Shown here in pieces: positions 1-20,103 of a stretch of DNA of 32,000 nucleotides (the first letter of the stretch is position 1; each line of letters starts with the position of its first letter). This DNA comes from Geotalea daltonii FRC-32. Its GTDB lineage: Bacteria; Desulfobacterota; Desulfuromonadia; Geobacterales; Geobacteraceae. The notes below the pieces were generated by a model. That model had not been told where the DNA came from, did not search any database, and was given only the letters and a program-made list of their open reading frames with translations. The DNA is taken from assembly GCF_000022265.1 (NCBI RefSeq), contig NC_011979.1, forward strand, positions 1,920,001-1,952,000, written 5' to 3'. Position numbers and translations under genes: made by a program.

Positions 1-2722
1 GGGTATAGGCAATGCTGTTTTCAACGACCTCTTCCTCAAAAGCAACGCTCCGTGGCTGACCGAGCTTGTTGAAGAGTTCGGTGCCGGTACGGAGATCACC
101 CTTGTAGGCCTTGATGGTCGGGATGAATACCGCCGGCCTCTGCATCATGGTTGAGGCGGTTGCAGGGATGATGCTGGGGGCCGGTGTCCAGGTGGCGTCG
201 GCGGGGATGGCGGTGCCGGTCATGTTGAAGCCCCCGTCAAAGAAGTTTTGGGAGGTTGCATGACAGTCGCTGCAGCCGTAGACGGTAACCTTGCCGGAGG
301 CATCGAAGGCGCGGGGCTTACCCAGCGCATACTGGGCGACGCCCTTGACCCCATGGGTCACCTGGTAAAGGCCGCCGATGTAATCAAGCCGGGTGCCTTC
401 CCAGGATCTACCCGATTGACCGGGCTTATCTTTGATGCTGGTTCGGTAGGTCTTATAGTCCCTGATTTCGTCAGGGGTGGTGAAGATGGCGTTGCCGCCG
501 TAGACCCCGACATACTTCCAGGCGCCGGTGAATGAGCCGTCGGCGTTGTAGGCGCTCTGGTACTTTCCGCCGGTTACACCATCACCTGCATTGCCGAAAC
601 CGACCGGAATAGGAGCAAAACCTCCGGGGGCAAAATTAATCCCGGCCTTCAGGTCGCGCTGGATCCACGGGTCGAAAATGGGCTCGCCAAAGCCCTGTGT
701 GGAATTGGCATCACCAACGGTCAGAATCTGTCCGTTGACACCGTCACCGTTAGCGTCAACGGCGGTGTTTTCATCGTTGTTGAACAGTGCCGAAACAATG
801 GTGTTGGTCAGGTAAATCTTGCGCCTGAAATTGGGGCTGGTCTTGAGACCATTGCCGACCTTGGACCAGGTTCTAAGCGGCAGCCATTCCTGGAGCGCGC
901 CGCCGATCACGTGGGTACCTGTCGGGATCTCGGCCTGGAAGCCGGGACCGGGCTGGCCGGTAGCCGTGCAGATGGTGCCGGGACCGCTCGATGAAGTGTA
1001 GCCGCAGTTGGTATTGATCATGGAATTCATGAAGTTGTACTGCTGTCTTGCCCCTTCGTTTGCAGCTTCAGTGGCAGGATCTTCGAACATGCCCATCATG
1101 CCTTTGCTGTAATCGAAGCCGACCATGGTCGGGTAGCGGTTGCCGCTGGTGCAATCCAGGGCGCGAACAGCCATGCTCTTCTTCTGTACGTGGCAGACGG
1201 TGCAGTCGATGACGTCCAGATGGCTGCCCGGAATGAATTTCTGTCCACCGCTGCCGTCGGGGCCCATGGCCCTGGCGATCATGGCGGTCAGACCCGCTTT
1301 CTGATGTGCTGCTGTGGCATCCGGCGCATTAAGGTTGTCAACGCTGTTGCCGTCCGGATTGGTGCCGGTAACATGGCAGCTTTCACACCGTTTGACGGTG
1401 TTGCGTGTATCGATCTTGGTTCCTATCTGTGAACCGTCCTCAATGGTGCCGGAACCGTCGAAACCACGCCCCGGGTCGCATTGATTCTTGTCGGAATTGG
1501 AGCTGTTGGTGTCCATGTGGCAACCGGCGCAGCCGAACTGGGTGTGGACATCCTGACCGGCCTGCCATGCGTCCCCACGCTTGAACCAGTCTGCCCGCGG
1601 GAAGGGAACGACCGATTTCTTCAGGACGTTCTGGTTCTGTTGCCCGGGGTAATCTGCCGTGAGTCCGATATCGGTAACGGGGGCCTCATAGAAGATGGGG
1701 CCGCTGCCACCCTGGTTGTCGCCGCCGAAGGAGGTCATGCCGTTGACGGTCGTTCTGTTGTAGACGGTGGAACCCTGGGCGGCAAGCAGCCCTTTCACCA
1801 TGTAGCTGTACAGATTGGTGGCGTCAACGAGCGGAGATTTGACGGTATTGGGCAGCCATGGCGAATTGAAGTCATAAGCGGGCATGATCAGGCCGGTTGG
1901 CCCTACCATCGGATTATTCGCGTTGGTATTGAGGATCATTGGCGCCGAGGAGAGGAAGCCGTTCATCATGTCGGGCAGATCCTTCATATTGTTCGGGCTG
2001 TGGCACTGCTGGCAGTTGGCGCTGGGAGGCAGGCGCTTGATGTTATCCACCACCGACTGCTTCAGGCTGACCGTCTGCATGCCATTGGCATCTTTGGGAC
2101 CCAGATCGACCATGGCGGCATTGTAGCCACCCTGTGTCTGACTGCCGGGCATGAGGTCCATGAGGCCCGCCCCGGCCATGGGTGCTGCATTGAGAATGCC
2201 CATCTGGGCAAAGACAGAGCTCATTACGTTGTTGTAGCCCTGGAAGTGGCAGAAGAGACAATCCATTTCCCGCACGTTGGGCATCATCAGCTGGCCGTTC
2301 TGGATATACGGCTCGCCATCTGCTGTTCCACCCTGGTTCATGGCAACACTGCCCCATCCATTGGGCGCGATCATCGCATTTGCACCACCCAGTGCCGGTG
2401 ATTTGCTATCAGTCGTGGCGGGATAGCTCCACGGTGCGCGGATAACGCTGCTGGTAGGGGCCCCTGATTTGGGATCCCAGGATTCATATACGGTGTTCAG
2501 ATACGGGTTAATGGTTTGGTCACCCAGCCCCCGTTGCGCGAGGCGAAGGCCATTGCGGTCTTTTTCCACCAAGCCGCCCCCAACGTGACAACTGCCACAG
2601 TTGGTGGCCATGTCCCAGACGGAGAGGTCCACTTTTGTAAATTTGCTGCCTGGTGTTGTATCGCCATACAAAAATAGATCAGAATTAGGGTAGGTCAGAT
2701 CTTTACCATCAGTTTGCCGCAT
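1..2722 (-). CDS. Large multihaem c-type cytochrome body. It is partial because its 3' end lies beyond the left edge. It has 7 CXXCH motifs, no signal peptide of its own, and is in frame with CDS 2753..3217.
   Basis: The minus-strand frame stays open from ATG 2720-2722 to base 1. It is absent from the ORF track because its stop is outside the window. Seven CXXCH motifs were read directly in that single frame: CGSCH (His codon 2585-2587), CLFCH (2246-2248), CQQCH (2000-2002), CAGCH (1517-1519), CESCH (1373-1375), CTVCH (1190-1192) and CSDCH (260-262). The N-terminus MRQTDGKDLTYPNSD has no hydrophobic leader. The + strand ORFs here are antisense shadows. Confidence 0.85.
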   Translation of the reverse strand, partial: MRQTDGKDLTYPNSDLFLYGDTTPGSKFTKVDLSVWDMATNCGSCHVGGGLVEKDRNGLRLAQRGLGDQTINPYLNTVYESWDPKSGAPTSSVIRAPWSYPATTDSKSPALGGANAMIAPNGWGSVAMNQGGTADGEPYIQNGQLMMPNVREMDCLFCHFQGYNNVMSSVFAQMGILNAAPMAGAGLMDLMPGSQTQGGYNAAMVDLGPKDANGMQTVSLKQSVVDNIKRLPPSANCQQCHSPNNMKDLPDMMNGFLSSAPMILNTNANNPMVGPTGLIMPAYDFNSPWLPNTVKSPLVDATNLYSYMVKGLLAAQGSTVYNRTTVNGMTSFGGDNQGGSGPIFYEAPVTDIGLTADYPGQQNQNVLKKSVVPFPRADWFKRGDAWQAGQDVHTQFGCAGCHMDTNSSNSDKNQCDPGRGFDGSGTIEDGSQIGTKIDTRNTVKRCESCHVTGTNPDGNSVDNLNAPDATAAHQKAGLTAMIARAMGPDGSGGQKFIPGSHLDVIDCTVCHVQKKSMAVRALDCTSGNRYPTMVGFDYSKGMMGMFEDPATEAANEGARQQYNFMNSMINTNCGYTSSSGPGTICTATGQPGPGFQAEIPTGTHVIGGALQEWLPLRTWSKVGNGLKTSPNFRRKIYLTNTIVSALFNNDENTAVDANGDGVNGQILTVGDANSTQGFGEPIFDPWIQRDLKAGINFAPGGFAPIPVGFGNAGDGVTGGKYQSAYNADGSFTGAWKYVGVYGGNAIFTTPDEIRDYKTYRTSIKDKPGQSGRSWEGTRLDYIGGLYQVTHGVKGVAQYALGKPRAFDASGKVTVYGCSDCHATSQNFFDGGFNMTGTAIPADATWTPAPSIIPATASTMMQRPAVFIPTIKAYKGDLRTGTELFNKLGQPRSVAFEEEVVENSIAYT

Positions 2723-2752: not shown

Positions 2753-3217
2753 TCACCACTTACCCCACATGGCCTTGGTCTGGTTCCATGGCTTCTGCCG
2801 GTTGACGGTGGTATCGAAGCCGCCGGTGGGAGAATCATTCCATTCATTGGCGCCTAAGGCTGAATGGAAAGCATGGTCGGCCAGGGCTTCATAGCTCTTC
2901 AATATTTTACCAGACGACGGGGCGACCGTCGTGCCGTTGTGGCAGGATCCGCATGTGGCCTTGGGACTGTAAGGAAAGCCCTGCATCGGGTTCTGGGGAT
3001 TGCCACCGACCATGACCGGCATGGGGCCTGCGGGTACCTTATTGCCCTTTGCATCTACTGAAAATGGTACGCCATACTGTACTGCCACTTCGTCATAAGT
3101 CTTCAGCTCAATAGGTGGATGAGCTGCGAGACCTGTGCCCATGGAGAGCCACAGGCCGGTGAATGTGACACCGACCGCGGCCACCAGTGGCAGAGAGCCT
3201 TTAATTCGCTTCTTCAT
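2753..3217 (-). CDS. Exported monohaem cytochrome c module, probably the N-terminal part of the downstream multihaem cytochrome
   Basis: This is ORF 2753..3307 with the start moved to ATG 3215-3217. The N-terminus MKKRIKGSLPLVAAVGVTFTGLWLSMGTGLAA is a Sec-type signal peptide, and a GGAAGG RBS precedes it. There is one CXXCH (ATCGSCHNG). The ORF ends at TGA 2753-2755, which is in the same reading frame as CDS 1..2722. Confidence 0.7.
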   Translation of the reverse strand: MKKRIKGSLPLVAAVGVTFTGLWLSMGTGLAAHPPIELKTYDEVAVQYGVPFSVDAKGNKVPAGPMPVMVGGNPQNPMQGFPYSPKATCGSCHNGTTVAPSSGKILKSYEALADHAFHSALGANEWNDSPTGGFDTTVNRQKPWNQTKAMWGKW

Positions 3218-3549
3218 GTTACCTTCCTTTCTTTTTGTCTGTTTCGCAATCTCTATGAAGATTGCATCTCTGCTTCCCTGATTGTCCGGCATTGGGGGAT
3301 GCCGCACCCGGGGAGAGCTACCCTTTTAAAGGCCAAACGGTATATTGCTGAAAGCGCGCTTATTAGATTGCATTATGTATACCTTTATTTAGATAAAACT
3401 ATATTGATGGACAATCGGTTCCAGGAGCTGTTGTACCGTATTATGTGGTTGTCTGAATGGTGAGGAACGATTGGGTCACATGACTCAACCGGGGGTGCAG
3501 TTGGGTGATGTGACCCATGTTTGGGGAGGGGGAACTGATGCTTTAGGAA

Positions 3550-4632
3550 CTAGTTTCCGGCAATTTCCTTGCGGTGGCCGAAGCCGTAGATACTGATCTT
3601 TCTCGGACCGGACTGATTAGTAACCAGAATAAGCTGCTCCACCTCGAAGGAAGGATCGGCAAAGGTCCTGAAGTATTCAAGATTTTCCCGGGTGATGGCG
3701 ATATCGGCGGGGATGCTTAGAGTCCCCTCTTTAGAGCCTCTTTCACCGAAGAACATCAGCAGCTGTCCGTCAGGATCAAAAATCTGCACCACCTGATTGC
3801 CGGCGTCCACCACGTAGATCAGCCCTGCATCGTCCACTGCGATACCTTTTGGTCTGCTGAACTGCCCGGGGCGGTCCCCAAGTGCACCGAAGGCCTTCAA
3901 CACCTTGCCATTTGGATCCATTTTGATGATTCGACAGGTGCCCAGGTTGGTAACATAGATATTCCCTTCCTTGTCCAGTGCCATATTAGTCGGCAAGGAA
4001 AGGGTCTCACCTTCTTTGCTGTCCCTGCCGACTGCACGGGTCTGCTCGCCGGTTTGCAGGTCAAATATCTTGATCTCACTGCTGTTGTAGTCTACTACGT
4101 ACAGTTCTTTTCCCCTGATGGCCGCATCAGTTGGCTTCATATCGCCGATTGAGAACGTGCCAGTGGGATTATCGTCATTGAAACGAATTACCTTCTTGCT
4201 CCCTGTATCTGCAACAAAGGCATTGCCCTCATCATCGAAGGAGATGTTGATGGGAGATTTCAGTACCTCAGTGTCCAACTGGTGGAAGGTCTTTTCATTG
4301 AGATCTATGGTGGTGATTCGACCCAAGGGTACATCAGATATAAAGATTTTACTCCCCCTGACCGCGATGCCGTAGGGTTTGGCGATCACTTCATTAACGC
4401 CTGGCGTGTCTGCAAAAATCGATGATTTGATATCATTGATTGAAGAGATGCTGGTCAGATATTGAACATGCGACGCATCGGGAGCAGGCGGGAAGAAAAC
4501 CGGGGCTTTAACCTGTTTGGGTGCAAAACAACCGGGAAGGTAGATTAAAAGACAAAGAAAAAAAAGGATGTGCCGATACCTGAGGGTGGAGTTTGTGGAG
4601 CTGTGGATCTGCATTCTCGTCTCCGGATACAT
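3550..4632 (-). CDS. NHL-repeat beta-propeller lipoprotein
   Basis: The 360-aa ORF has a hydrophobic leader ending in the lipobox LPGC. It carries repeated NHL-type blades (PYGIAV..IFISD, GNAFVADTGSKKV, GKELYVVDYNS, GNIYVTNLGTCRI, PKGIAVDDAGLIYVVDAGNQVV). Confidence 0.8.
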   Translation of the reverse strand: MYPETRMQIHSSTNSTLRYRHILFFLCLLIYLPGCFAPKQVKAPVFFPPAPDASHVQYLTSISSINDIKSSIFADTPGVNEVIAKPYGIAVRGSKIFISDVPLGRITTIDLNEKTFHQLDTEVLKSPINISFDDEGNAFVADTGSKKVIRFNDDNPTGTFSIGDMKPTDAAIRGKELYVVDYNSSEIKIFDLQTGEQTRAVGRDSKEGETLSLPTNMALDKEGNIYVTNLGTCRIIKMDPNGKVLKAFGALGDRPGQFSRPKGIAVDDAGLIYVVDAGNQVVQIFDPDGQLLMFFGERGSKEGTLSIPADIAITRENLEYFRTFADPSFEVEQLILVTNQSGPRKISIYGFGHRKEIAGN

Positions 4633-4663
4633 GATGTTTGTGCAGCTTGGAGTGGCGGAAGGA

Positions 4664-4686
4664 GCAGGCCGCCTGAGACGGCCTGC
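4664..4686 (-). other. Intercistronic GC-rich hairpin between the tetrahaem cytochrome and the NHL gene
   Basis: GCAGGCCG-cctgaga-CGGCCTGC forms an 8-bp perfect stem. No U-tract follows it on the transcribed (minus) strand. Confidence 0.35.
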
Positions 4687-4706
4687 TTTCAGGTGGATGT
4701 ATCGAG

Positions 4707-5501
4707 TTACTTGTCGTGGCAGGTCAGGCAGAGTTTTGATCCATCCATTTTAACCCGCAGCAGTGGTTTGGCTGCCGTCCTGGCTGCAGTGTTATGGACG
4801 TCGTGGCAAGAGGCGCAGGTGAGTTTATCTGCCTTGTAGAGCAGTTCTTCTATCTTTGTGCACTTCCTGTCCGCGGCGGGGACCCACCCTATATCCACAT
4901 TGGCCGGCCGGATAAAAGAATCATTGGCTGCAACCTGCTTGTAGCTGAAGCCGATAGGGTGGTCGTTCATGAGATTGCCGCCACTTTCTCCGGAGTGGCC
5001 GTCACCGAGAGGAGCCAGTACTACCTCTGGTGCCGTAGGGGTGAACGAGCCGATCTTGCCGGCGTAGGAGTCGATGGCGGTGGTACCGTCGTGGCAGCTC
5101 ATGCAGAGACGGGATGGCCCGTCCATCATGTCGGCGGGATCGATTACCGCTTGCAGGGAGAGGGCTTTATCCAGATACGTCGGATCCGCCATGTAGTCTT
5201 CTTTGAGAAGGCCGTTGTAAGGAAGGAAATTTTGCGTGACCGGGTTCCTGTTCCACAGCGGGTTGTAACCGGTTTCACCGGTCGATCTGGCGCTGTGCGG
5301 CGTGTGGCAGAACTTGCACACCTGCTGATTCGGGTCGCCCGAGGTTGTTCCGCCGGAGGCGATGGGGAGATAGAGGTTCATGTTGTGGGGGGAGGTGGCC
5401 ACACCCGTCCCTTCGGTATAGTTGACCAGTCCGGCGTAAGCGAACGTTGCGCTTGCGACGACAAGTAGGGCGGCTATACCTGCTCTGATTTTTAGGTTCA
5501 T
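4707..5501 (-). CDS. Exported tetrahaem c-type cytochrome (small OmcE/OmcS-class outer-surface type)
   Basis: The 264-aa ORF has the signal peptide MNLKIRAGIAALLVVASATFAYA. It carries four CXXCH motifs (CKFCH, CMSCH, CASCH, CLTCH). It also has SPHN and CxxCHxPH/CxxCHDVH contexts typical of Geobacter-type cytochromes. Confidence 0.9.
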   Translation of the reverse strand: MNLKIRAGIAALLVVASATFAYAGLVNYTEGTGVATSPHNMNLYLPIASGGTTSGDPNQQVCKFCHTPHSARSTGETGYNPLWNRNPVTQNFLPYNGLLKEDYMADPTYLDKALSLQAVIDPADMMDGPSRLCMSCHDGTTAIDSYAGKIGSFTPTAPEVVLAPLGDGHSGESGGNLMNDHPIGFSYKQVAANDSFIRPANVDIGWVPAADRKCTKIEELLYKADKLTCASCHDVHNTAARTAAKPLLRVKMDGSKLCLTCHDK

Positions 5502-5696: not shown

Positions 5697-7133
5697 TCAG
5701 GTAGCAGCAGCTCCCGTTCTTTTTCTTTCGCCCCGGAGACCGAATTTTTTCATACGGTAGCGCAGGGTGTCGCGGCTGATGCAAAGATATTTTGCCGCTT
5801 TGGTCTGATTTCCTCCGGCAATCTCCAATCCTTGACGGATCATTCGCCGTTCCAGCTCCACAATGGAGACGCCGACGGTCTCAGATACACCACCAAAGCG
5901 AGTCGAATTGCCCGGCTGGCCATGGTTGGCCGTAGGTTGCGGTTTCTGCTCGAAATTATGCTTTATTTCAATATTTAAAAATCGGGGTGAGATGGTTTTT
6001 TCCTGTTCCAACATCATGCTGCGCTCGATGGCATTGCGCAACTCGCGGACATTTCCCGGCCAGTCATAGGCGGTCAGGTACGCCAGGGCTTCTTCGGATA
6101 TGCCTTCCACCTTTTTTCCATATTCCTCATTCAGACGGCGGATGAAGTAGCCGACCAATAACGAAATATCCTCTTTTCGATCCCGCAGAGGGGGCAGGCA
6201 AATGCTCATGACGTTCAGACGGTAGAACAGGTCGCCTCTGAAGGTGCTGCTTTTGACCATTGCCTGCAGATTCTGGTGGGTGGCGGCAATGATGCGCACA
6301 TTGGCTTGAATGTCCTCTTCACTTCCCAGACGTCTAAAACGCTTGGTTTCGATGACCTTCAACACCTTGGACTGCATGGACAACGGCATGTCGCCGATTT
6401 CATCAAGAAAGACCGTTCCACCTTCGGCCAGCTCGAAAATTCCCTTTCGCCTTTTGCCGGCGTCGGTATAGGCTCCTTTCTCATGGCCGAACAGCTCACT
6501 TTCCAGAAGGTTTTCCGGGATAGCCGCGCAGTTTATTTCGGTAAAAGGAGCGTCTGCCCTGGCGCTGTGGTAATGGATTGCCCTTGCAACAAGCTCCTTG
6601 CCGGTGCCGCTTTCACCCAATAGCAGAATAGTTTTGGCATCTGTTTCGGAGCAGACCTTGATCATTTTGAAAAGATCTACCATGGCTTCGCTGGTTCCTA
6701 CCAGTTTGTCGTCTTCCGTTTTCTTGCGCAATTCCTGGTGAAAAAAATCGGCGGTCTCACCCAGATGCCGCTTTTCAAAGGTTCTGTTGATGACATGGAG
6801 AAAGACTTCCATGTTGAAAGGTTTGCCGATGAAGTCCTCAGCTCCCAGTTTCAGAGCTTTTACTGCCGAGTCGGCATCGGCGTTGGCCGTCATGACAATA
6901 ACGCTTATATCTTTCCTTTCGGATTCGATCCGGCTGAGCAGATCCAGGCCGCTGCCGTCGGGAAGCCAGAGGTCGAGCAGCACCACGCACGGCCTGAAGC
7001 TTTTCAATTTCTCTTTCGCCTCAGCAATTGAAGCAGCTGCATCTACAATGAAGCCTCTTCTGTTGAGCATAAAGGACAAGGAAAGAGAGATAAGTTTTTC
7101 ATCCTCTACGATCAATATCCTTTTTTCCCCCAT
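5697..7133 (-). CDS. Sigma54-dependent response regulator (NtrC/Fis family enhancer-binding protein)
   Basis: The protein has an N-terminal REC domain (ILIVEDE...VVLLDLWLPDGSG). Its AAA+ core has Walker A GESGTGKE, a GAFTGA-position loop reading GAYTDA, and FLDEIGDM. The C-terminus is a Fis-type HTH (NQTKAAKYLCISRDTLRYRMKKFG). Confidence 0.9.
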   Translation of the reverse strand: MGEKRILIVEDEKLISLSLSFMLNRRGFIVDAAASIAEAKEKLKSFRPCVVLLDLWLPDGSGLDLLSRIESERKDISVIVMTANADADSAVKALKLGAEDFIGKPFNMEVFLHVINRTFEKRHLGETADFFHQELRKKTEDDKLVGTSEAMVDLFKMIKVCSETDAKTILLLGESGTGKELVARAIHYHSARADAPFTEINCAAIPENLLESELFGHEKGAYTDAGKRRKGIFELAEGGTVFLDEIGDMPLSMQSKVLKVIETKRFRRLGSEEDIQANVRIIAATHQNLQAMVKSSTFRGDLFYRLNVMSICLPPLRDRKEDISLLVGYFIRRLNEEYGKKVEGISEEALAYLTAYDWPGNVRELRNAIERSMMLEQEKTISPRFLNIEIKHNFEQKPQPTANHGQPGNSTRFGGVSETVGVSIVELERRMIRQGLEIAGGNQTKAAKYLCISRDTLRYRMKKFGLRGERKRTGAAAT

Positions 7134-7281
7134 TTTTTATCTTCTCCACGGTGACTTTGATGACTGTTGGAGCCTTAGCACAAATTGGTCCGTAAATTTC
7201 GTATGGTGGATAGAAAAATGACAACTAATTCAGGAAAACGCATATATGGTTAGAATGTTTAAGGTTATAATTTAATTAGTT

Positions 7282-7297
7282 AGGGCATTTTTTTGCT
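7282..7297 (+). promoter_or_regulatory. Weak candidate sigma54 (-24/-12) promoter facing the Fe-S/DedA gene
   Basis: aGGgcatttttTTGCt has GG and TTGC with the canonical 11-nt G-to-G spacing, but the -24 box is degenerate (AGGGCA against TGGCAC). It lies about 230 bp upstream of ATG 7526, divergent from the EBP gene. Confidence 0.2.
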
Positions 7298-7525
7298 GAT
7301 CACTCGCATGCAGTATAGATATATTCAGGTTTAATGATAATTGGCGGATTAGAATTAAAAACAATTTCGGTAAAATAACGGGTGTTCTTCGTGGTTAGGC
7401 GAGGTTGTACTGCCGTCGTCAATATTTAAAAAAACGATAGATATAATCATTTTTTTCGATATTTCCAATTTGACTTTGCCCGAATGTGTTTGTTAGGGTG
7501 TCAGCGGTTTTCAGGAGGCACCGGG

Positions 7526-9949
7526 ATGAATTCTTCAATGGGCAAAATTCGGCCATCCTTGGCTAAGATGTTGGCAGAGGCAATGAATGGCTGCACCGGC
7601 TGCGGCGTCTGCGTTCGGGAATGCGCCTACCTGAAACTGTACGGCACTCCCCGTGACATTGCCGGCTCCTATGATCCGGTGGACTCCAAAAACAGCAGCA
7701 TCTGCTTTGAATGCAGTCTCTGTGGCCTTTGTACGGCTGTATGTCCGGAGGGAGTAGATCCGCAAAAACTATTTCTTGAGATGCGACGCGAGGCGGTGGA
7801 TCGAGGCAAAGGTTCATTTCCTGAACACAAGGGGCTCCTGGCATACGAGCGGACCGGCATGTCGCGGCGTTTCACCTGGTACGGCCTGCCCGAGGGGTGT
7901 ACGACCGTATTTTTCCCGGGTTGCGCTTTGCCGGGAACAAGGCCTGCTGCAACCATGGCGGTCTATGAAAAACTCAAGGAGTCGGTTCCTGCCCTTGGGC
8001 TGGTAATGGACTGCTGCGCAAAGCCTTCCCACGATTTGGGCCGGGAGCAGTTTTTTCAGCAGATGTTCAATGAAATGACCGATTGGTTTAAATCCCACGG
8101 CGTGCAGCGGGTCCTGGTTGCCTGTCCCAACTGTTACAAGGTCTTTTCCGACTATGCGCCCCAGTTTGAGACAAAGACCGTTTATGAACTGCTGGCCGAG
8201 ATCACCCCCGAAAGGATCAGCGATGCCCCTGCTGTGCCGGTGACCATCCATGACCCGTGCGTGATCCGCTTTGACGAAGCGCCGCAGGGGGCAGTGCGCA
8301 CGCTGATTGCAACAGCCGGCCACAGTATTGAAGAGATGCCGCATGCCAGAAAGACTGCCTTGTGCTGCGGTGAGGGGGGAACGGTCAGTCCGCTGGCCCC
8401 GGATCTGGCGGGCAGCTGGGGAGCGCTGCGTGTGGATGAAGCTGCCGGGAGGCGGCTTGTAACCTATTGTGCCGGATGCGCCAACCACCTGGGAAAGAAG
8501 CTGCCGGTAACCCATGTCCTGGATATGCTCTGCTACACTCCCAAGCCATCTTCGGGGCTGATTACCTATGTGAATCGACTGCGTCTCAAATCCCGATTCA
8601 AGGGTACCGTGCCCGCGGCGGTAACGAGGGAGCGGGTTAATCCCAACGCCTCCCGAAGCGGAAAGCTCCGGCCTCTTTTGTTCCTGGCTGCCCTGGCGGC
8701 GGTAATTATCCTGGTCCGGGTGGGTGGGGCAAGCCAATATCTGGAGCCGGAAAAACTGCGGACATTGTTTGCCGGCTTCGGGGTGGTCGCACCACTCGTC
8801 TACATCGCCTGCTACATCGTCGCTCCTGCACTGATGTTCCCCGGCCTGCCCCTCAGTATTGCCGGGGCTACGGTATTCGGGCCATTCTGGGGTGTCGTCT
8901 ATACGATCATCGGCGCCACCTTGGGCGCCTGCGCTGCATTCCTCATCGCCCGTTACGCCGCGCGGGACTGGGTAGAGCGCCGTCTGGTCGGCTCCCGCTG
9001 GAACAAACTGGACGACGAAACCGGGAAGAACGGCTGGAAAGCGGTGGCGGTTACCCGGCTGATTCCGTTGTTCCCCTTCAACCTACTCAATTTTGCCTTC
9101 GGTCTCACCCAAATATCCTTCCTCCAATATGCCGTGGCGACCTTTATCTTCATGCTGCCCGGCACCATTGCCTATATTACCTTTTCCAGTTCATTGCTCG
9201 GGGTATTGAAGGGGAGGGTGTCGCGGGAGTTTTTCATCGGCATTGGTTTGCTGGTGGCGGTCTCGCTGATTCCCAAGGTCGCTGCATGGTACAAAGGTCG
9301 ATCTCTTCAGGCGCCTCGGCCGGCGGTGCCCTGGAACCTGCGGAGAAGCCTGCAAAGAAAGGCGGCCGTTCTTGCCGTGCTCTGTTTATTGTCTGCCGGT
9401 ACGTACACCCTGATCCGGAAATTTTTCTGGGCGCTGGACGCCTATCTGTACACCATCGAGTTCAACCTGCTCTTTGTGGCAAGCCGTTTACAGGATGCAG
9501 AGCTTGCCCGCTTTGTAGAATACCTCGTGCCCATGTCCGGGATGCGGGCCGCAGGAATTGCGCTGGCTTGTCAGGCCATGGCGGCATTTGCTTTCCCGTT
9601 CTCGTCGTTAAGGACCGACGTGGCCTTTACTTCGGCATTCGGCACATGGACCGGCATGGCTTATTTTGCCGGAGCTGACCTGCTGGTGACCGGAGTTGCC
9701 GCTTCGATCGGCAGGTTTATCCTGGGGGACCTGTTGCCGATGTACTACCGGCGCAAGGGAAAGGATACACTGTCTCCGGCGCCCATCTGGATAGGGTGGG
9801 CTGCGGCGGCACTTTTGGCCGTTCCCGGTATTCCGTTAGTGCTGGGCGCTTTGGTCGTCGGCGGATTTCGTCTACATCCCGGCCGCTCGCTTGCAGTCAT
9901 GGCGGCCGGGGTTGCCGTAAGAGCACTGGCTCTGCTGCTGACAAGATAG
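7526..9949 (+). CDS. Fusion protein: HdrD/GlpC-like Fe-S oxidoreductase (2x[4Fe-4S] plus 2 CCG domains) fused to tandem DedA/TVP38 (VTT) membrane domains
   Basis: The start is set at ATG 7526, behind an AGGAGG RBS; the ORF track starts at 7484. Ferredoxin motifs are CTGCGVCVRECAY and CFECSLCGLCTAVCPEG. CCG-type motifs are FFPGCALPG..DCCAKP..CPNCYK and DPCVIRF..LCCGEGG..YCAGCANH. About 430 aa of multi-pass membrane sequence follow, with the TVP38/DedA signature (FPGLPLSIAGATVFGPFWGVVYTIIGATLGACAAFLIARY..RLIPLFPFNLLNFAFG). A second, degenerate copy follows (FPFSSLRTDVAFTSAFGTWTGMAYFAGADLLVTGVAASIGRF). Confidence 0.75.
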   Translation: MNSSMGKIRPSLAKMLAEAMNGCTGCGVCVRECAYLKLYGTPRDIAGSYDPVDSKNSSICFECSLCGLCTAVCPEGVDPQKLFLEMRREAVDRGKGSFPEHKGLLAYERTGMSRRFTWYGLPEGCTTVFFPGCALPGTRPAATMAVYEKLKESVPALGLVMDCCAKPSHDLGREQFFQQMFNEMTDWFKSHGVQRVLVACPNCYKVFSDYAPQFETKTVYELLAEITPERISDAPAVPVTIHDPCVIRFDEAPQGAVRTLIATAGHSIEEMPHARKTALCCGEGGTVSPLAPDLAGSWGALRVDEAAGRRLVTYCAGCANHLGKKLPVTHVLDMLCYTPKPSSGLITYVNRLRLKSRFKGTVPAAVTRERVNPNASRSGKLRPLLFLAALAAVIILVRVGGASQYLEPEKLRTLFAGFGVVAPLVYIACYIVAPALMFPGLPLSIAGATVFGPFWGVVYTIIGATLGACAAFLIARYAARDWVERRLVGSRWNKLDDETGKNGWKAVAVTRLIPLFPFNLLNFAFGLTQISFLQYAVATFIFMLPGTIAYITFSSSLLGVLKGRVSREFFIGIGLLVAVSLIPKVAAWYKGRSLQAPRPAVPWNLRRSLQRKAAVLAVLCLLSAGTYTLIRKFFWALDAYLYTIEFNLLFVASRLQDAELARFVEYLVPMSGMRAAGIALACQAMAAFAFPFSSLRTDVAFTSAFGTWTGMAYFAGADLLVTGVAASIGRFILGDLLPMYYRRKGKDTLSPAPIWIGWAAAALLAVPGIPLVLGALVVGGFRLHPGRSLAVMAAGVAVRALALLLTR

Positions 9950-9975
9950 AAAATCAAAATTACAGGAGGTTTCAC

Positions 9976-10704
9976 ATGTACCGATTGGCTTTGCGTATTA
10001 CACTGCTTGCTTCGTTGATTCTTTCTTTTGCCCTTTCGGCGAGCGCAGCAAAGCAGAAGCCGGCTGCCGTAAAAACAGACAAGTATGGGAGCGATACCCT
10101 GACCACCAATGGCCGGACACGGGAGGTCAGGGTGACCGCAACGGTCGTTAAAGACTGCTCCCAGCCCTCGGTATGCGACTGGGGCCGGCGTTTCCAGGGT
10201 TTCTTCGGCAGCAAGGACGGGAAAATGGCCCCTTTTTTCATTTTTTCCACCGAAGTACATCGTGCTGCACTGGATAAGGCGATTAAATCGGTAGGTATCA
10301 AGTCGCGACGCCAGATTCCCATGACGGAAGTGAAACAGCGTTCAGGGTTGAAGTCGACCACGCAGATGGACGATTACCTGGACGGCGATCCGATACTGGT
10401 TTCGGTTCGCTGGAAGCAGGACGGCAAAATGGTGGAACGGGCTATGGAAGAGTTGATCGAAGAAAAGATACTGGTGGACGGCAAGGAGGTCATCAAGCCC
10501 TACACCCCTCATTTCGTATACCATGGAACCGCTGAGGCCATCAACTTTGCCTCCGGGTGTATTGTCTGCCCATCGGGTTGCAATGGCGGAGTTATTGCCG
10601 ACAACTCGGTTCCCCTCAAGGAGACGAAAAACTATTACCGCTTTAACTGGAAGAAGATGCCCCATCCGGGGACAAAGGTGGAAATCGTCCTGAAATCGGT
10701 ATAG
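9976..10704 (+). CDS. Exported protein of unknown function with a C-terminal CxxCxxxC motif (possibly YdjY-like)
   Basis: The start is set at ATG 9976, behind an AGGAGG RBS. The longer track ORF from 9796 overlaps the upstream gene. The signal peptide is MYRLALRITLLASLILSFALSASA. The Cys motif is SGCIVCPSGCNGG. The YdjY resemblance is from memory only. Confidence 0.6.
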   Translation: MYRLALRITLLASLILSFALSASAAKQKPAAVKTDKYGSDTLTTNGRTREVRVTATVVKDCSQPSVCDWGRRFQGFFGSKDGKMAPFFIFSTEVHRAALDKAIKSVGIKSRRQIPMTEVKQRSGLKSTTQMDDYLDGDPILVSVRWKQDGKMVERAMEELIEEKILVDGKEVIKPYTPHFVYHGTAEAINFASGCIVCPSGCNGGVIADNSVPLKETKNYYRFNWKKMPHPGTKVEIVLKSV

Positions 10705-15082: not shown

Positions 15083-15356
15083 ACGTTACCATCTTGTCGC
15101 GCCGACAGTCAATCCTGCTCGTTTAAGAAAAAAATAATGATAATCACGGTTGACAGGGAAGAGGGCTTCGTGTTATTTGAAATCTACTTTCAGTTTTAAA
15201 AAAGGTGGGCTGGGGAAGTGTATGTGCTGTTGTATAGTGCAATGGCAACTGTGTATAGATTTATTTAAATCGAGAAAATGAAAATCACAATCAGTGGTCG
15301 AAGGAGGGTTAACGTTGCCACGCGTGAAATGTAATCAAAACAAAAGGAGAAAAGAG

Positions 15357-16604
15357 ATGAAAAAATCATTTGTACTTATGGCTGCAGTAACCATACTGGG
15401 CAGCATGGCATCCATGGCCCGCGCGGCAACAGTTGAAGAACTGCAGCAGCAGGTTGATGAATTACGTAACCAGGTGAAGGCGATCAAGGCGCCGGCTCCT
15501 TCAGCGGAGAGTGGAGGGGACGGGTATGCGAAGAAAGTCTGGGATAATACCCGCTTTGGTGGATACGGCGAGCTGGATTACATCGTGACACGTGAAAACG
15601 GCAACGGCAAAGGGAGCAATGCCTTCGATCCGCATCGCTTCGTCCTGTATGTAAATTCCGACCTGAGCGACTGGATCACCTTGAATACCGAACTGGAATG
15701 GGAGCACGGCGGCGTCGGTGGTGACGTGAAGGACGGAAAAAAACTTTCGGGAGAGGTCTTGGTGGAGCAAGCTTTTCTCCAGTTCAAGCTGTCGCGTCCC
15801 CTCAATCTCAAAGCAGGTATCATGCTCGTTCCTCTAGGTGCGACTAATCTCTACCATGAGCCGACAAACTTCAATTCCAGCGAAAGGCCACAGCTGGACC
15901 GTTATCTGATTCCCTCAACCTGGTCTGAGATGGGAGCAGGGATCTATGGCTCTCTGGGGACCAAGGTAGATTACGAGTTGCTGGTGATGAACGGATTGGA
16001 CGGCGCAGGCTTTTCGGCCAAGGACGGCGTCCGTGGCGGCAGGCAGAACCTGAATGCCGACGTAAACAGGAACAAGGCTGTTGCCGGCAGGTTGGAAGTA
16101 CGTCCCTTCACCAACCTCTACACCAACTTCTCCTTTTACACCGCCAATTCAGCCAAGGTAGGCACTGCATACACCACCATCGCAGCCTTTGACGGCAAAT
16201 ACAGCATTGGCGATCTTGACTTGGCAGGAGAATATGTGCATGTCTACCAGGACGATCCTCGCGCATTGGGGGTAACGGATATCGGCCACAACATGTCCGG
16301 CTATTGGGTCGAGGGTGCCTACCATGTCCTGCCGAAGAGCCTGAAGAAGGGTAAGCTGTCGGAGGCCGATGCCCTGATCTTTGCCCGCTATTCTGAATTC
16401 GATACCCAGCAGGGTTCAATAGGTGATCCGAGCAAGGCCAGCGGCAAATACGACCGAAACTACACCAATTTCGGCATCGTCTTCAAACCGACGACAACCT
16501 TATCGGTGAAGGCCGATTACCAGGTTTACGACGACCATCGCAAAGCCGGAGAGAAAGCACTTGATAACGACAAGTTCCAGGTGACGCTTGGTTTCGTGTT
16601 CTGA
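15357..16604 (+). CDS. Outer-membrane porin, phosphate-selective porin O/P-like
   Basis: The start is ATG 15357, behind AAGGAGA. The signal peptide is MKKSFVLMAAVTILGSMASMARA. An N-terminal coiled-coil segment follows, then alternating beta-strand sequence ending in the C-terminal barrel signature TLGFVF. Confidence 0.75.
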   Translation: MKKSFVLMAAVTILGSMASMARAATVEELQQQVDELRNQVKAIKAPAPSAESGGDGYAKKVWDNTRFGGYGELDYIVTRENGNGKGSNAFDPHRFVLYVNSDLSDWITLNTELEWEHGGVGGDVKDGKKLSGEVLVEQAFLQFKLSRPLNLKAGIMLVPLGATNLYHEPTNFNSSERPQLDRYLIPSTWSEMGAGIYGSLGTKVDYELLVMNGLDGAGFSAKDGVRGGRQNLNADVNRNKAVAGRLEVRPFTNLYTNFSFYTANSAKVGTAYTTIAAFDGKYSIGDLDLAGEYVHVYQDDPRALGVTDIGHNMSGYWVEGAYHVLPKSLKKGKLSEADALIFARYSEFDTQQGSIGDPSKASGKYDRNYTNFGIVFKPTTTLSVKADYQVYDDHRKAGEKALDNDKFQVTLGFVF

Positions 16605-17748: not shown

Positions 17749-20103
17749 TCAGCGCATTGTAGCAAAGGTTACGCCGTTGCCCCCCTCATGCTGATCGCCG
17801 ACGCGGTATTCCCTTACCAGCGGATGACCGTCCAGATGCTCACGCACCCCTTTCATCAATGCACCGGTGCCTGTGCCGTGGATTATCTTCACTTCTCCCA
17901 GTCCTGCGGTCGAAGCCCTGTTGAGGAATGTCTCCAGTTGTGAAAGGGCTTCGTCCACCCTCAATCCCAACAGCCTGAGCTCGTGAGAGGTCTCGGGCTC
18001 CTCGATGGCCTTTCGCCGTGATGGTTCTTCCTTCATCTTCACCCCGCGCTTTAATGCCACATCACCGGCAGATACTTCCACCTCCCTATGCCCTACCTTC
18101 AGTCTTAACCGCTGCTGTTTTTCGTCAATGCGGGCAATGGTGGCGTCAAAGCCAAGGGATCTGACAAAAACAGTGTCTCCCACCGAGAGTTCCTGCAAGG
18201 CAGGGGATACATCTTCCTGGTATTCCCGGAGTTTCTTTTCCAGCTCCCCCCCCATTTTCTCCAGTTTTTTCAGGGAATCCCCGGACTTTTCCCGGCGTGC
18301 CTTGTCAAGGATGGCCCTTGTCTCGCGTTTGACCGTGGTGACCACATCCCTGGCTTCGGCAAAGGCTTTGCCCATTGCCTGCCGTTTTGCTTCTTCAGCC
18401 TGGGCCAGACGCATGGAAAGAAGGCGTTCCCGCTCGGCAGCCCTCTGTTCCCGCGCATCCAGGTCCGCTATCAATTCCGAGTATCGCTGTCGTTTTTCCT
18501 TGAGCTCTGCCAGCAGGGCATGAAAATCGGCCTCTCTCGTGCCGATCATCCTTTCGGCAAAGTCGATGACTTTTGCAGGCATACCATAGCGCCTGGCGAT
18601 GTCGATGGCGTGGGATTGTCCCGGCTCGCCGCTCTGCAACCGGTAAAGGGGGGTCAGGTTAGCATGGTCGAATTCCATGGAGGCGTTGGTCATGCCGGGG
18701 GTCCGATGGACAAAGGCCACTATGTCGGTCAGGTGAGTCGTGGCAATGACAAGGGCTCCCTTTTCCTGCAGCTCTTTAAGAACGCCGCAGGATATGGCGG
18801 CCCCCTGTCCGGGCTCGGTGCCGGTTCCCAATTCATCCAGGAGCACAATACTTAGTTTACCAGTTTTGTGGAGGATTTCAGCCATATTTGCCACATGGGC
18901 TGAGAAGGTGGACAGGCTGCTTTCAATGGATTGGTCATCCCCCATGTCCACGAGCAGGTTGTCGGCCAGGGGAATGGACGAAGAAGGAGCCGCCGGGATC
19001 GGTATCCCGGAGAGCCCCATGGCCAGAAGAAGTCCCACAGTCTTGATGGCGATGGTTTTTCCCCCGGCGTTGGGGCCGGTGATGACCATTATACTGTCGT
19101 CTGCCGGTGGTGTGCCGAGGCGGATATTGAGCGGTACCGGTTCGTGGCCGTTGCCCCTGTCGCGCATAAGCATCAACAGCGGGTGGCGCGCCCCATTCAG
19201 TTCGATTTCACCGCCATCGTTGATAAAGGGTGCATTTGCTCCGAGCTGATCGGCAAACCGGGCTATGCTGTTGAGGGTATCAAGTCGGACGAGGGTCTGG
19301 AATTCCACGTTTATGTCATCGGCGGCAATACGAATCTCCTGGCAGATGGCCCGGATGATGCGGATTTCCTCCCCCTTTATCTCTGCCCCCAGGTTTTCCA
19401 GCTCATTGGCTAGGCTTATGATCTCCAGTGGCTCCATGAAGGCTGTTTCACCGGTATTTGAAACATCGTGGACAACCCCTGCCACCATTCCTTTTGAATC
19501 CATGCGCACTGGAATGACCCATCTCCCCCCTCGCTGGGTTACGAACTCGTCCTGAAGGAAGAGAGCTATCTTCGGCTCGCGGATGATCTCCTCCAGCCGT
19601 TTTCTGATCCGCGCCGTCAGGCTCCTTTTTTTGCCACGCAAATCCTGGAGCAGTGGCGAAGCCGAGTCAAGGATATTGCCCTCGAAATCCAGGGTCGTTT
19701 CCAGTCGATCGAGGAGGTGTGGAAAACCGGTGAGATTTCCCGCCAGGTCCTTGATGAGAGGTATATCGTTGCGATAGGCAAGCTGTTTAGCCAGGGAAGA
19801 GAGCACCTGAAAAAAGGGGGTGAGGATGGCAAGGTCGTGGTGGTCGAGCACTGCCCCTTCCGGGCGCACTGCTTCCAGGAGCGGTGTTATATCCTCAAAG
19901 GTCGATAGCCGCAGGGGTACCCTTACCTGAGCCAGCCTTCTGATTTCTTCAATCTGGCCGAACTGTGTTTCAAGCCTTTCCCTTATATGGAAAGGGAGGA
20001 TTTCCGAGATGAATTTTCGGGAGGGGGCACTATTGGCGAAACCGGCAATGAAGGAAAGAATTTTTTCGAATTCAAGGAGGTGCAGGGAATCCTTTTTTAT
20101 CAT
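17749..20103 (-). CDS. mutS2: Endonuclease MutS2 (MutS-family ATPase with a C-terminal Smr domain)
   Basis: The 784-aa protein has Walker A ITGPNAGGKT, the MutS block STFSAHV, LLDELGTGTEP and THL. A coiled-coil linker is followed by a C-terminal Smr domain (LRLLGLRVDEAL..IIHGTGTGAL). Confidence 0.9.
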   Translation of the reverse strand: MIKKDSLHLLEFEKILSFIAGFANSAPSRKFISEILPFHIRERLETQFGQIEEIRRLAQVRVPLRLSTFEDITPLLEAVRPEGAVLDHHDLAILTPFFQVLSSLAKQLAYRNDIPLIKDLAGNLTGFPHLLDRLETTLDFEGNILDSASPLLQDLRGKKRSLTARIRKRLEEIIREPKIALFLQDEFVTQRGGRWVIPVRMDSKGMVAGVVHDVSNTGETAFMEPLEIISLANELENLGAEIKGEEIRIIRAICQEIRIAADDINVEFQTLVRLDTLNSIARFADQLGANAPFINDGGEIELNGARHPLLMLMRDRGNGHEPVPLNIRLGTPPADDSIMVITGPNAGGKTIAIKTVGLLLAMGLSGIPIPAAPSSSIPLADNLLVDMGDDQSIESSLSTFSAHVANMAEILHKTGKLSIVLLDELGTGTEPGQGAAISCGVLKELQEKGALVIATTHLTDIVAFVHRTPGMTNASMEFDHANLTPLYRLQSGEPGQSHAIDIARRYGMPAKVIDFAERMIGTREADFHALLAELKEKRQRYSELIADLDAREQRAAERERLLSMRLAQAEEAKRQAMGKAFAEARDVVTTVKRETRAILDKARREKSGDSLKKLEKMGGELEKKLREYQEDVSPALQELSVGDTVFVRSLGFDATIARIDEKQQRLRLKVGHREVEVSAGDVALKRGVKMKEEPSRRKAIEEPETSHELRLLGLRVDEALSQLETFLNRASTAGLGEVKIIHGTGTGALMKGVREHLDGHPLVREYRVGDQHEGGNGVTFATMR

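Follow-up and report, generated by a model that had tools for sequence, protein, structure and literature searches.

DedA (VTT) proteins are near-universal membrane proteins. TMEM41B and VMP1, which act in human autophagy and lipid biology, are among them, and COG0398 is the bacterial DedA subfamily closest to those two. A 32,000-nucleotide stretch of the genome of Geotalea daltonii FRC-32 (NC_011979.1, positions 1,920,001 to 1,952,000 of the forward strand; hereafter the window) holds a gene at 7526-9949 that encodes a COG0398 domain together with an iron-sulfur module resembling that of heterodisulfide reductase (Hdr). Why would a DedA protein be covalently joined to a redox module, and what could the two do together? 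The answer we reach is that, in strict anaerobes, COG0398 is covalently tied to a predicted disulfide-cleaving iron-sulfur module of the Hdr type, in a protein that may both transport and reduce a compound of sulfur or selenium. As a DedA-disulfide-reductase fusion it appears to be of a known kind; what appears to be new is the iron-sulfur form of the anaerobes, a C-terminal DedA-like family and the constant partnership with YdjY in the long forms.

An iron-sulfur module and two DedA units in a single polypeptide

The gene lies in a single unbroken open reading frame (ORF), 7484-9949 on the plus strand of the window. We place its start at the ATG at 7526 and not at 7484, because an AGGAGG sequence precedes it at 7513-7518 and homologs begin at the equivalent residue. 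Its parts are the following (positions in the window):

7513..7518, plus strand: Shine-Dalgarno sequence AGGAGG of the fusion gene, 7 nucleotides 5' of the ATG at 7526, read from the sequence
7526..9949, plus strand: fusion gene, 807 amino acids and stop codon TAG; HdrD-like module, DedA, divergent DedA-like domain
7583..7759, plus strand: HdrC-like ferredoxin domain, residues 20-78; two CX2CX2CX3C motifs for two predicted cubane [4Fe-4S] clusters
7898..8140, plus strand: CCG domain 1, residues 125-205; C133, C163-C164, C200xxC203; Pfam CCG
8243..8500, plus strand: CCG domain 2, residues 240-325; C245, C280-C281-G, C315xxC318; Pfam CCG, second stretch
8543..8656, plus strand: conserved junction, residues 340-377; amphipathic helix 346-361 in the AlphaFold2 (AF2) model, and a K/R-rich segment before the first transmembrane (TM) helix
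8657..9301, plus strand: DedA domain 1, residues 378-592, of the YdjX/TVP38 (COG0398) type; VTT core at residues 438-555 (8837-9190)
9323..9946, plus strand: divergent DedA-like domain, residues 600-807 (hereafter C-ext), by profile evidence; apparently a YdjY-associated family of its own

An initial annotation of this DNA, made from its letters alone, had described one polypeptide with a dicluster ferredoxin domain, two CCG domains, a VTT domain and a second, divergent VTT-like domain. Every one of these parts is present, and the CCG and VTT domains are both recovered by their Pfam models above cutoff. The annotation had also considered that a frameshift or an assembly join between 8560 and 8700 might have created an artificial fusion, which is ruled out by the conservation of the junction in more than 100 independent assemblies. 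Residues T347, Y348, R351, K355 and R370 of this segment are invariant in the alignment of 65 family sequences on which we scored residue conservation, and the segment carries six K/R against one D/E. The AF2 model of the whole protein has a mean predicted local distance difference test (pLDDT) score of 85.8.

Regarding how widespread the fusion is and which genes lie beside it, as the annotation had asked, a scan in which each species was represented by one genome gave at least 564 relatives, and YdjY, rhodanese and MauE proteins recur as neighbours in the loci compared. A protein search returned 1144 matches, and nearly all of the best 120 of them have both VTT and CCG; the exceptions are some fragments and several forms that lack VTT, P0061 and P0079 among them. 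Full-length homologs share 45-71% identity with the fusion protein, and the closest named relative among the matches listed is that of Oryzomonas japonica (70%). All named sources in both searches are Desulfobacterota (Geobacter, Desulfuromonas, Syntrophales, Desulfobacterales and Desulfobulbales) or Nitrospirota (Thermodesulfovibrionales). The family falls into a long class of about 810 amino acids, which includes the protein of the window and is found mostly in Geobacterales and Desulfuromonadales, and a commoner short class of about 610 amino acids that lacks the last ~200. A search of the literature gave no paper naming DedA together with 'CCG domain', and no report of a Fer4/CCG fusion was found. 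The architecture is almost certainly real and its modules almost certainly work together.

A predicted HdrD-type iron-sulfur module

To judge from its motifs and profile matches, the cytoplasmic N-terminal part of 375 residues is an HdrD-type module (HdrC-like plus HdrB-like), whose predicted ligands would hold two cubane [4Fe-4S] clusters and, in the CCG domains, two clusters of the Hdr type. The two ferredoxin-type [4Fe-4S] motifs that had been noticed initially read C23xxC26xxC29xxxC33 and C63xxC66xxC69xxxC73P, each of the form CX2CX2CX3C, and coincide with a Fer4_17 match at residues 23-78 (E 1e-9); Fer4_8 is likewise above its Pfam cutoff. Pfam CCG (PF02754) matches in two stretches within residues 125-325 (E 3e-15, 56.4 bits against a cutoff of 20.6). 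The first follows the pattern C133-x29-C163C164-x35-C200xxC203, with CCA here and CCT in most homologs, and the second C245-x34-C280C281G-x33-C315xxC318. All 18 cysteines of the module, eight of the ferredoxin type and five in each CCG domain, are invariant in the 65 sequences. The family profile also matched HdrC structures over residues 11-107 (E 1e-3 to 0.015) and HdrB structures over residues 214-335 (E 3e-4 to 6e-3). The closest curated family is NF045663, 'diclust_near_Sec' (E 2.7e-62, residues 25-372 against profile positions 310-671 of 759), with a score of 210.9 bits against a full-match cutoff of 530; our literature search found nothing on the meaning of this NCBIfam name.

When the AF2 model was compared with known structures by Foldseek, the top match was EtfD of M. 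smegmatis (PDB 9ojn, E 3.7e-10), followed by LutA. EtfD is also the best match by sequence, with E 6.7e-12 for the single sequence and 1.6e-17 with the family profile. It acts as a non-catalytic wire, in which C538-T539 replaces the Hdr CC pair and gives a linear [3Fe-4S] cluster, while His583 caps the second cluster, D2 (PMC13083937). In the HMMER alignment of CCG domain 1 with EtfD C503 / C538-T539 / C581-P-H583-C584, C163-C164 face C538-T539 and N202 stands in the place of the capping His583; C280-C281 face C672-C673 of EtfD. Both C163-C164 and N202 are invariant across the family. Since the two CC pairs are kept and the His cap is absent, we infer from the aligned residues a ligand set of the catalytic Hdr type, with the chemistry that would follow from it.

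One could argue that the module is an electron wire linking a soluble partner with the quinone pool, in the style of EtfD, GlpC or SdhE, with DedA as its anchor or quinone site. EtfD is indeed the closest solved structure by both fold and sequence, and a precedent is given by GlpC and SdhE, CCG proteins that act at the membrane without disulfide reduction. We consider such a role quite improbable, as the two non-catalytic features of EtfD, the C-T pair and the His583 cap, are absent, and so are haem-b ligands. H784, the only histidine of the membrane part, lies outside the lists of conserved columns; with no conserved membrane histidine there is no haem-b site, and therefore the protein does not form a complex of the HdrDE or DsrMK type. 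No gene for a haem-b membrane subunit (HdrE, DsrM or NarI-like) adjoins the fusion gene.

The first DedA domain belongs to COG0398

VTT_dom (PF09335) matches residues 438-555 over profile positions 1-122 of 123 (E 1.6e-25, 90.4 bits against a cutoff of 33.9). Among E. coli proteins, YdjX aligns with DedA domain 1 at 35% identity (E 5e-32) and YdjZ with E 2e-19, and homologs carry the JGI label 'YdjX (TVP38/TMEM64 family)'. Besides closeness to YdjX and YdjZ, COG0398 is marked by a first re-entrant segment free of acidic residues (Todor et al. 2023, PMC10127716). This segment, residues 437-453 (FPGLPLSIAGATVFGPF), contains neither D nor E, and by this and by the comparison with YdjX and YdjZ the domain is placed in COG0398. 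The gene encodes one inner-membrane protein. Each of its DedA units is preceded by a K/R-rich segment, and both units therefore seem to enter the membrane from the cytoplasm. The pLDDT of the canonical DedA domain in the AF2 model ranges from 55 to 85.

Of all modules, the VTT core shows the strongest conservation in the family, with a mean column identity of 0.80. The membrane part is therefore more than a passive anchor, and this weighs against the electron wire as well. No membrane cysteine appears in the lists of invariant or at least 90% conserved columns, hence the fusion protein cannot itself be a DsbD-like thiol relay.

A different role for the DedA part would be lipid handling, as a phospholipid scramblase or as a flippase of polyprenyl phosphate or its sugar-linked form, with the iron-sulfur module gating it by redox state or modifying a lipid-linked intermediate. 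COG0398 resembles the scramblases TMEM41B and VMP1, and other DedA proteins flip undecaprenyl phosphate (PMC10127716). For COG0398 itself, Todor et al. argue that flipping of undecaprenyl phosphate is unlikely because the residues it needs are missing (PMC10127716). The present protein hardly matches NF052604, the equivalog for UptA, an undecaprenyl-phosphate flippase of the COG0586 DedA subfamily (13.4 bits, E 0.059, with the cutoff at 250). Besides, a pure sensor would have no need of two complete, invariant sets of Hdr-type catalytic cysteines. We regard lipid handling as distinctly unlikely, and return to it with the gene neighbourhoods.

The C-terminal domain is a divergent DedA-like family

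For C-ext, Pfam returned no family at E<=10. Foldseek with the whole fusion gave no match for either membrane domain and retrieved no DedA structure, and the question of a tandem DedA was therefore settled by sequence profiles. The decisive test was a search of 1.84e9 representative proteins with the C-ext profile. It recovered about 20 clusters of free-standing homologs of 205-230 amino acids and, in a tail of library-wide significant matches (E 1e-5 to 5e-4), canonical VTT_dom proteins aligned over their VTT region in ten out of ten cases tested. This makes C-ext a divergent member of the DedA superfamily. A clean hhalign comparison of C-ext with DedA domain 1 agrees (E 6e-4, 94 in-register columns), where controls with reversed sequences and with MauE gave E 0.035-0.21 over 22-29 columns. 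With the DedA hidden Markov model, five real C-ext sequences beat all 3300 shuffled decoys and shared one register. The C-ext profile also aligned in register with E. coli YdjZ (E 5.9e-4, 118 columns). Two much stronger hhalign values between C-ext and DedA, E 2.5e-27 and 7e-38, were discarded, as the 'short' set, picked by length, held P0049 and P0050, long-form sequences truncated at the N-terminus that include C-ext.

The initial annotation had called this second VTT-like repeat degenerate. Its homology to DedA holds up, given the profile search and the YdjZ match; mere decay does not, given a conserved family of its own. Three observations speak against a decaying copy: C-ext is modelled with a pLDDT of 85-97, above that of the canonical DedA domain; in three loci (L040, L051 and L057) it has a gene to itself, placed between the fusion gene and ydjY; and it also stands alone beside ydjY. 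The last arrangement is seen on the contigs with P0121, where a divergent LysR gene, a free-standing C-ext homolog and YdjY are accompanied by a DCC1-like thiol-disulfide oxidoreductase encoded on the other strand, and where no HdrD-DedA gene adjoins the C-ext/YdjY module. In P0061, from a single contig, the HdrD-like module is joined straight to C-ext, and P0138 has the permuted order DedA, HdrD-like, C-ext. Read as Rosetta-stone evidence, these split and permuted arrangements would show that the modules are linked. C-ext thus appears to be a distinct YdjY-associated DedA-like family, apparently undescribed. A second DedA-like domain and YdjY co-evolve with the fusion, which would be needless for an anchor, a further point against the electron wire.

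YdjY is the predicted operon partner

Immediately downstream of the fusion gene lie the following features:

9964..9969, plus strand: Shine-Dalgarno sequence AGGAGG of ydjY, read from the sequence
9976..10704, plus strand: YdjY-domain protein of 242 amino acids with a Sec-type signal peptide; NCBIfam NF040466
10558..10581, plus strand: G-C-x2-C-x3-C motif of YdjY (C195, C198 and C202), from the alignment

The YdjY protein matches NF040466 with E 1.2e-27 (96.8 bits against a cutoff of 50), and its homologs carry PF27149. The gene follows the fusion gene on the same strand after a gap of 26 nucleotides, and by this arrangement it is predicted to be co-transcribed as its operon partner. In all six long-form loci ydjY adjoins the fusion gene on the same strand. 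The cysteine motif is invariant in 35 close homologs and present in 21 of 22 diverse YdjY proteins, including that of E. coli. A sequence search of the PDB with YdjY gave no match, and in the literature YdjY turns up only in omics tables.

Five YdjY proteins among the relatives (L004:10524-11402, L009:10480-11352, L013:2970-3566, L051:10760-11671 and L057:10299-11210) have an N-terminal extension with a C-S-C-C motif, after which comes a signal or anchor of a Tat-like 'RxxFLK' kind. The order suggests a cytoplasm-facing tail with vicinal cysteines on an otherwise periplasmic protein. The YdjY of the window lacks the extension and has a plain Sec-type signal.

Sulfur-transfer proteins accompany the family

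To place the fusion in its genomic context, the flanking ORFs of 86 loci were clustered and neighbours were counted:

Long fusions (n=6): YdjY in 6, rhodanese in 3, any of rhodanese, YdjY or MauE within 2.5 kb in 6
Short fusions (n=48): YdjY in 12, rhodanese in 25, any of rhodanese, YdjY or MauE within 2.5 kb in 35

A periplasmic rhodanese, YdjY or MauE lies within 2.5 kb in 77% of the fused loci, and the fusion loci are statistically associated with periplasmic sulfur-transfer proteins. The adjoining rhodaneses are most likely periplasmic, because almost all of them start with a signal-peptide-like hydrophobic N-terminus. Single loci add TusA, Se_S_carrier, a radical-SAM/DUF3641 protein, an AIRS/AIRS_C protein of the size of SelD, SelA or MerB. 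The recurrent neighbour clusters c6, c24, c27 and c10 showed no kinship to YdjY, DedA or MauE by hhalign.

Several loci have arrangements of their own. Directly upstream of three long fusions lie rhodanese-like proteins of 138-141 amino acids with a signal peptide (L006:7570-7989, L007:7579-7995 and L008:950-1375). They lack the active-site cysteine, the loop reading VVVSATGGSDA against VVVCPRGGGG in relatives, and share a conserved C-[ED]-C-C-K-P end; the window has no counterpart of this small gene. In L046:7881-11483 (Desulfosediminicola flagellatus), a DedA protein of 229 amino acids, a rhodanese of 278 and an HdrD-DedA fusion of 582 are encoded on one strand, again two DedA units and a rhodanese. 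Six loci (L053, L061, L062, L085, L036 and L039) hold either short fusions or stand-alone HdrD-like proteins of 370-450 amino acids, apparently with one C-terminal TM helix. Beside the HdrD-like gene, these six have a MauE/DoxX-family membrane protein, a periplasmic rhodanese of ~175 amino acids and a divergent LysR gene. Where the HdrD-like protein stands alone, the set with MauE, rhodanese and LysR may be a DedA-free version of the system. In L004, from a Geobacteraceae metagenome-assembled genome, a gene for the organomercurial lyase MerB (7320-7823) and an ORF of 46 amino acids lie immediately upstream of a long fusion.

A role in detoxification or uptake of thiophilic metals or metalloids (Hg, As or Te) could be read into some of these loci: by comparison with MerT/MerP/MerA, periplasmic vicinal-cysteine proteins would feed the DedA pair and the iron-sulfur module would reduce the ion or its thiol adduct. 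The MerB of L004, the C-x-C-C motifs of the L006-L008 rhodanese-like proteins and of several YdjY N-termini, and the arsenosugar-family genes of some loci would fit, and MerA-class FAD (flavin adenine dinucleotide) reductases are known fusion partners of COG0398 (PMC10127716). These are hints from single loci or from motifs, and the window has neither a MerR or ArsR regulator nor a mer or ars operon, its YdjY being of the kind without C-S-C-C. To our knowledge, CCG clusters do not reduce metal ions. On balance, this role seems highly improbable.

The flanks of ten short-form loci (L015, L018, L019, L023, L026, L028, L041, L042, L047 and L055) are of a glycosylation type. Their genes encode an outer-membrane beta-barrel protein (~280 amino acids, with no family), a polyprenyl-phosphate hexose-transferase-like GT2 and a CelA-like GT2. 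A GT-C-like polytopic protein of ~490 amino acids with the motif SDDIYRY, large multi-domain periplasmic rhodaneses and members of the TIGR04282/TIGR04283 'arsenosugar biosynthesis glycosyltransferase' families complete the set.

That many short-form loci adjoin such genes speaks for lipid handling. Against it, no such glycosylation gene is present in the window or in any other long-form locus, where ydjY is invariably found instead, and the periplasmic rhodaneses would be left without an explanation.

A possible route for sulfur or selenium across the membrane

COG0398 DedA proteins are joined to, or encoded with, three unrelated classes of thiol-disulfide enzymes: FAD reductases, HdrD-type iron-sulfur modules and the AhpD-like YnjA. 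For this reason, we favour some form of thiol or chalcogen chemistry. Our tentative proposal, possible though somewhat short of likely, is that passage of a thiophilic sulfur or selenium species through DedA is coupled to reductive cleavage of an S-S or S-Se bond in the cytoplasm. In the periplasm, YdjY, together with signal-peptide rhodaneses in most relatives, would capture thiophilic chalcogen species. Candidate cargoes would be sulfane sulfur in the form of persulfide or polysulfide, sulfur derived from thiosulfate, or an analogue with selenium, for instance selenotrisulfide. The DedA pair would pass the captured species across the membrane, and at the cytoplasmic face the noncubane clusters would cleave the S-S or S-Se bond, as HdrB does with CoM-S-S-CoB. 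Electrons from a soluble donor, ferredoxin or a flavoprotein, would enter through the two cubane clusters. The initial annotation had suggested redox-coupled or redox-gated handling of a membrane or periplasmic substrate, a putative role with which the gene neighbourhoods agree and to which they give a narrower form.

The same partners, periplasmic cysteine-motif proteins and rhodaneses beside a cytoplasmic disulfide reductase, could also serve traffic in the opposite sense. The HdrD-like module would then reduce a small or lipid-soluble disulfide, and the DedA pair would export or flip the thiol, keeping YdjY and the rhodaneses reduced or loaded; functionally this would resemble CydDC or DsbD/CcdA. 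MauE/DoxX 'redox-associated' membrane proteins recur nearby, the DCC1-like oxidoreductase lies beside the free-standing C-ext and YdjY, and fusions of a FAD-type glutathione- or thioredoxin-reductase-like kind occur in aerobes (PMC10127716), all of which would suit such a shuttle. The lack of conserved membrane cysteine pairs does not, these taxa have no known thiol that could act as the carrier, and the direction of transport cannot be read from sequence. We therefore hold an outward shuttle to be unlikely.

Inward passage coupled to cytoplasmic reduction has several observations against it. In the window there is no rhodanese gene, ydjY and a sigma-54 regulator being all that adjoins the fusion gene, and no electron-donor gene is conserved beside it. 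About one quarter of the short-form loci have no sulfur-related neighbour, and a sizeable short-form subset sits instead in the glycosylation-type cluster (GT2, GT-C-like, TIGR04282/TIGR04283). The links to selenium are anecdotal, coming from single loci in a group of organisms that is rich in selenoproteins anyway. The fold of YdjY gave no function: the AF2 model has a pLDDT of 74.6 with a poorly modelled loop at the cysteine motif, and Foldseek against the PDB returned noise (best E 0.018, TM-score 0.14). Finally, COG0398 DedA proteins have been seen, by analogy with TMEM41B and VMP1, as possible lipid scramblases and not as solute transporters (PMC10127716).

Taken together with what is known of COG0398, these data allow a broader reading, which we put forward as doubtful. 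Bacterial DedA proteins of the YdjX/TMEM41 type (COG0398) would not primarily be lipid scramblases; they would be the membrane-crossing part of a traffic in thiol-reactive sulfur or selenium species that needs a cytoplasmic disulfide-cleaving enzyme. Such a pairing would have evolved at least three times independently, with FAD reductases in aerobes, HdrD-type noncubane iron-sulfur modules in anaerobes and the AhpD-like YnjA in E. coli. On the outer face the partners would be YdjY and the periplasmic rhodaneses, and the divergent DedA-like domain would complete an obligate pseudo-heterodimer of the kind that YdjX and YdjZ may form.

Control regions and other features of the window

The nearest candidate regulator is encoded divergently from the fusion gene:

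5697..7133, minus strand: sigma-54-dependent response regulator (Pfam Response_reg, Sigma54_activat and HTH_8); candidate regulator, with a weak association

A similar sigma-54 activator lies within 2.5 kb in three of the six long-form loci. The spacer at 7134-7483 is AT-rich and 350 bp long. No sigma-54 promoter (TGGCAC-N5-TTGC) was found in 7134-7525, and the 34 found across the window, against 38 expected, are at chance. Scans for sigma-70 promoters and terminators were at chance level too, and the window contains no tRNA and no Rfam family.

Just past the sigma-54 regulator, at 3550-5501 on the minus strand, are an NHL/beta-propeller protein and a multihaem c-type cytochrome with paired CXXCH motifs and an MtrC-like match. 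They are usual Geobacteraceae content and have no established tie to the fusion operon. An ORF of 868 amino acids at 20100-22706 on the minus strand has no Pfam match and is overlapped by a 378-amino-acid ORF on the other strand; it lies in a stretch of odd composition, with a GC skew of -0.21 and an AT skew of -0.47 at 21001-22000. No Pfam family was found for the ORFs at 1481-2401 (plus, 306 amino acids), 2753-3307 (minus, 184) and 15294-16604 (plus, 436).

Comparison with known systems

HdrD and HdrBC, and likewise DsrK, TmcB and HmcF, share with the fusion protein the order of a two-[4Fe-4S] ferredoxin domain and then two CCG domains, with both five-cysteine sets including the CC pairs. 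They differ in having no DedA membrane part and in their haem-b partner (HdrE or DsrM), which the fusion lacks, and the similarity is remote (E ~1e-3). The substrate in these bacteria cannot be CoM-S-S-CoB. EtfD resembles the fusion in joining an iron-sulfur/CCG module and a membrane domain in a single polypeptide; unlike the DedA part, its membrane domain binds haem b and precedes the iron-sulfur module. In NF045663 (pyridine nucleotide-disulfide oxidoreductase/dicluster-binding protein) a flavoprotein is fused to the same dicluster/CCG module, whereas the present protein lacks the N-terminal flavoprotein part of ~300 amino acids and has DedA in place of the C-terminus.

In the thiosulfate uptake system YeeE/YeeD (TsuA/TsuB), a transporter of sulfur species works directly with a cytoplasmic sulfur-processing protein. 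The likeness is one of concept, with no homology, since YeeE lies outside the DedA proteins and YeeD resembles TusA, not an iron-sulfur reductase. Papers on DedA and selenite exist, which may or may not concern COG0398.

The initial annotation had held that no DedA protein is known to need a redox partner, which overstates the case. The commonest fusions of COG0398 are with FAD-type pyridine-nucleotide disulfide oxidoreductases (PF07992/PF02852), and the subfamily has been tied to aerobic metabolism (Todor et al. 2023, PMC10127716); in E. coli, the operon includes the AhpD-like YnjA and the rhodanese gene ynjE follows. In those FAD fusions, as in ours, a COG0398 domain is fused to a cytoplasmic enzyme of the disulfide-reductase class. 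They differ in being FAD- and NAD(P)H-dependent, in their unrelated fold and in their aerobic link, while HdrD-DedA is confined to strict anaerobes among the matches listed, and neither a tandem second DedA domain nor a link to YdjY has been reported for them. The HdrD-DedA family qualifies the published association of COG0398 with aerobic metabolism (PMC10127716). Added to the FAD-reductase fusions, the iron-sulfur fusions point towards thiol, sulfur or selenium chemistry.

The E. coli locus is ordered ydjX (DedA), ydjY, ydjZ (DedA), ynjA (AhpD-like), ynjBCD and ynjE (rhodanese). YdjX and YdjZ have been grouped with the eukaryotic TMEM41B, TMEM64 and Tvp38. Both the ydjX operon and ynjE are directly activated by FNR (PMC3688515). 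The two systems have in common a DedA-YdjY-DedA core plus a redox protein and a rhodanese. In E. coli, these are separate genes, the AhpD-like YnjA takes the place of the iron-sulfur/CCG module and an ABC (ATP-binding cassette) transporter is included. By analogy, we consider that the fusion gene with ydjY is the iron-sulfur counterpart, in anaerobes, of the ydjXYZ-ynj locus. It gives a concrete handle on the role of TMEM41-like bacterial DedA proteins, and a rationale for the orphan, FNR-induced operon of E. coli.

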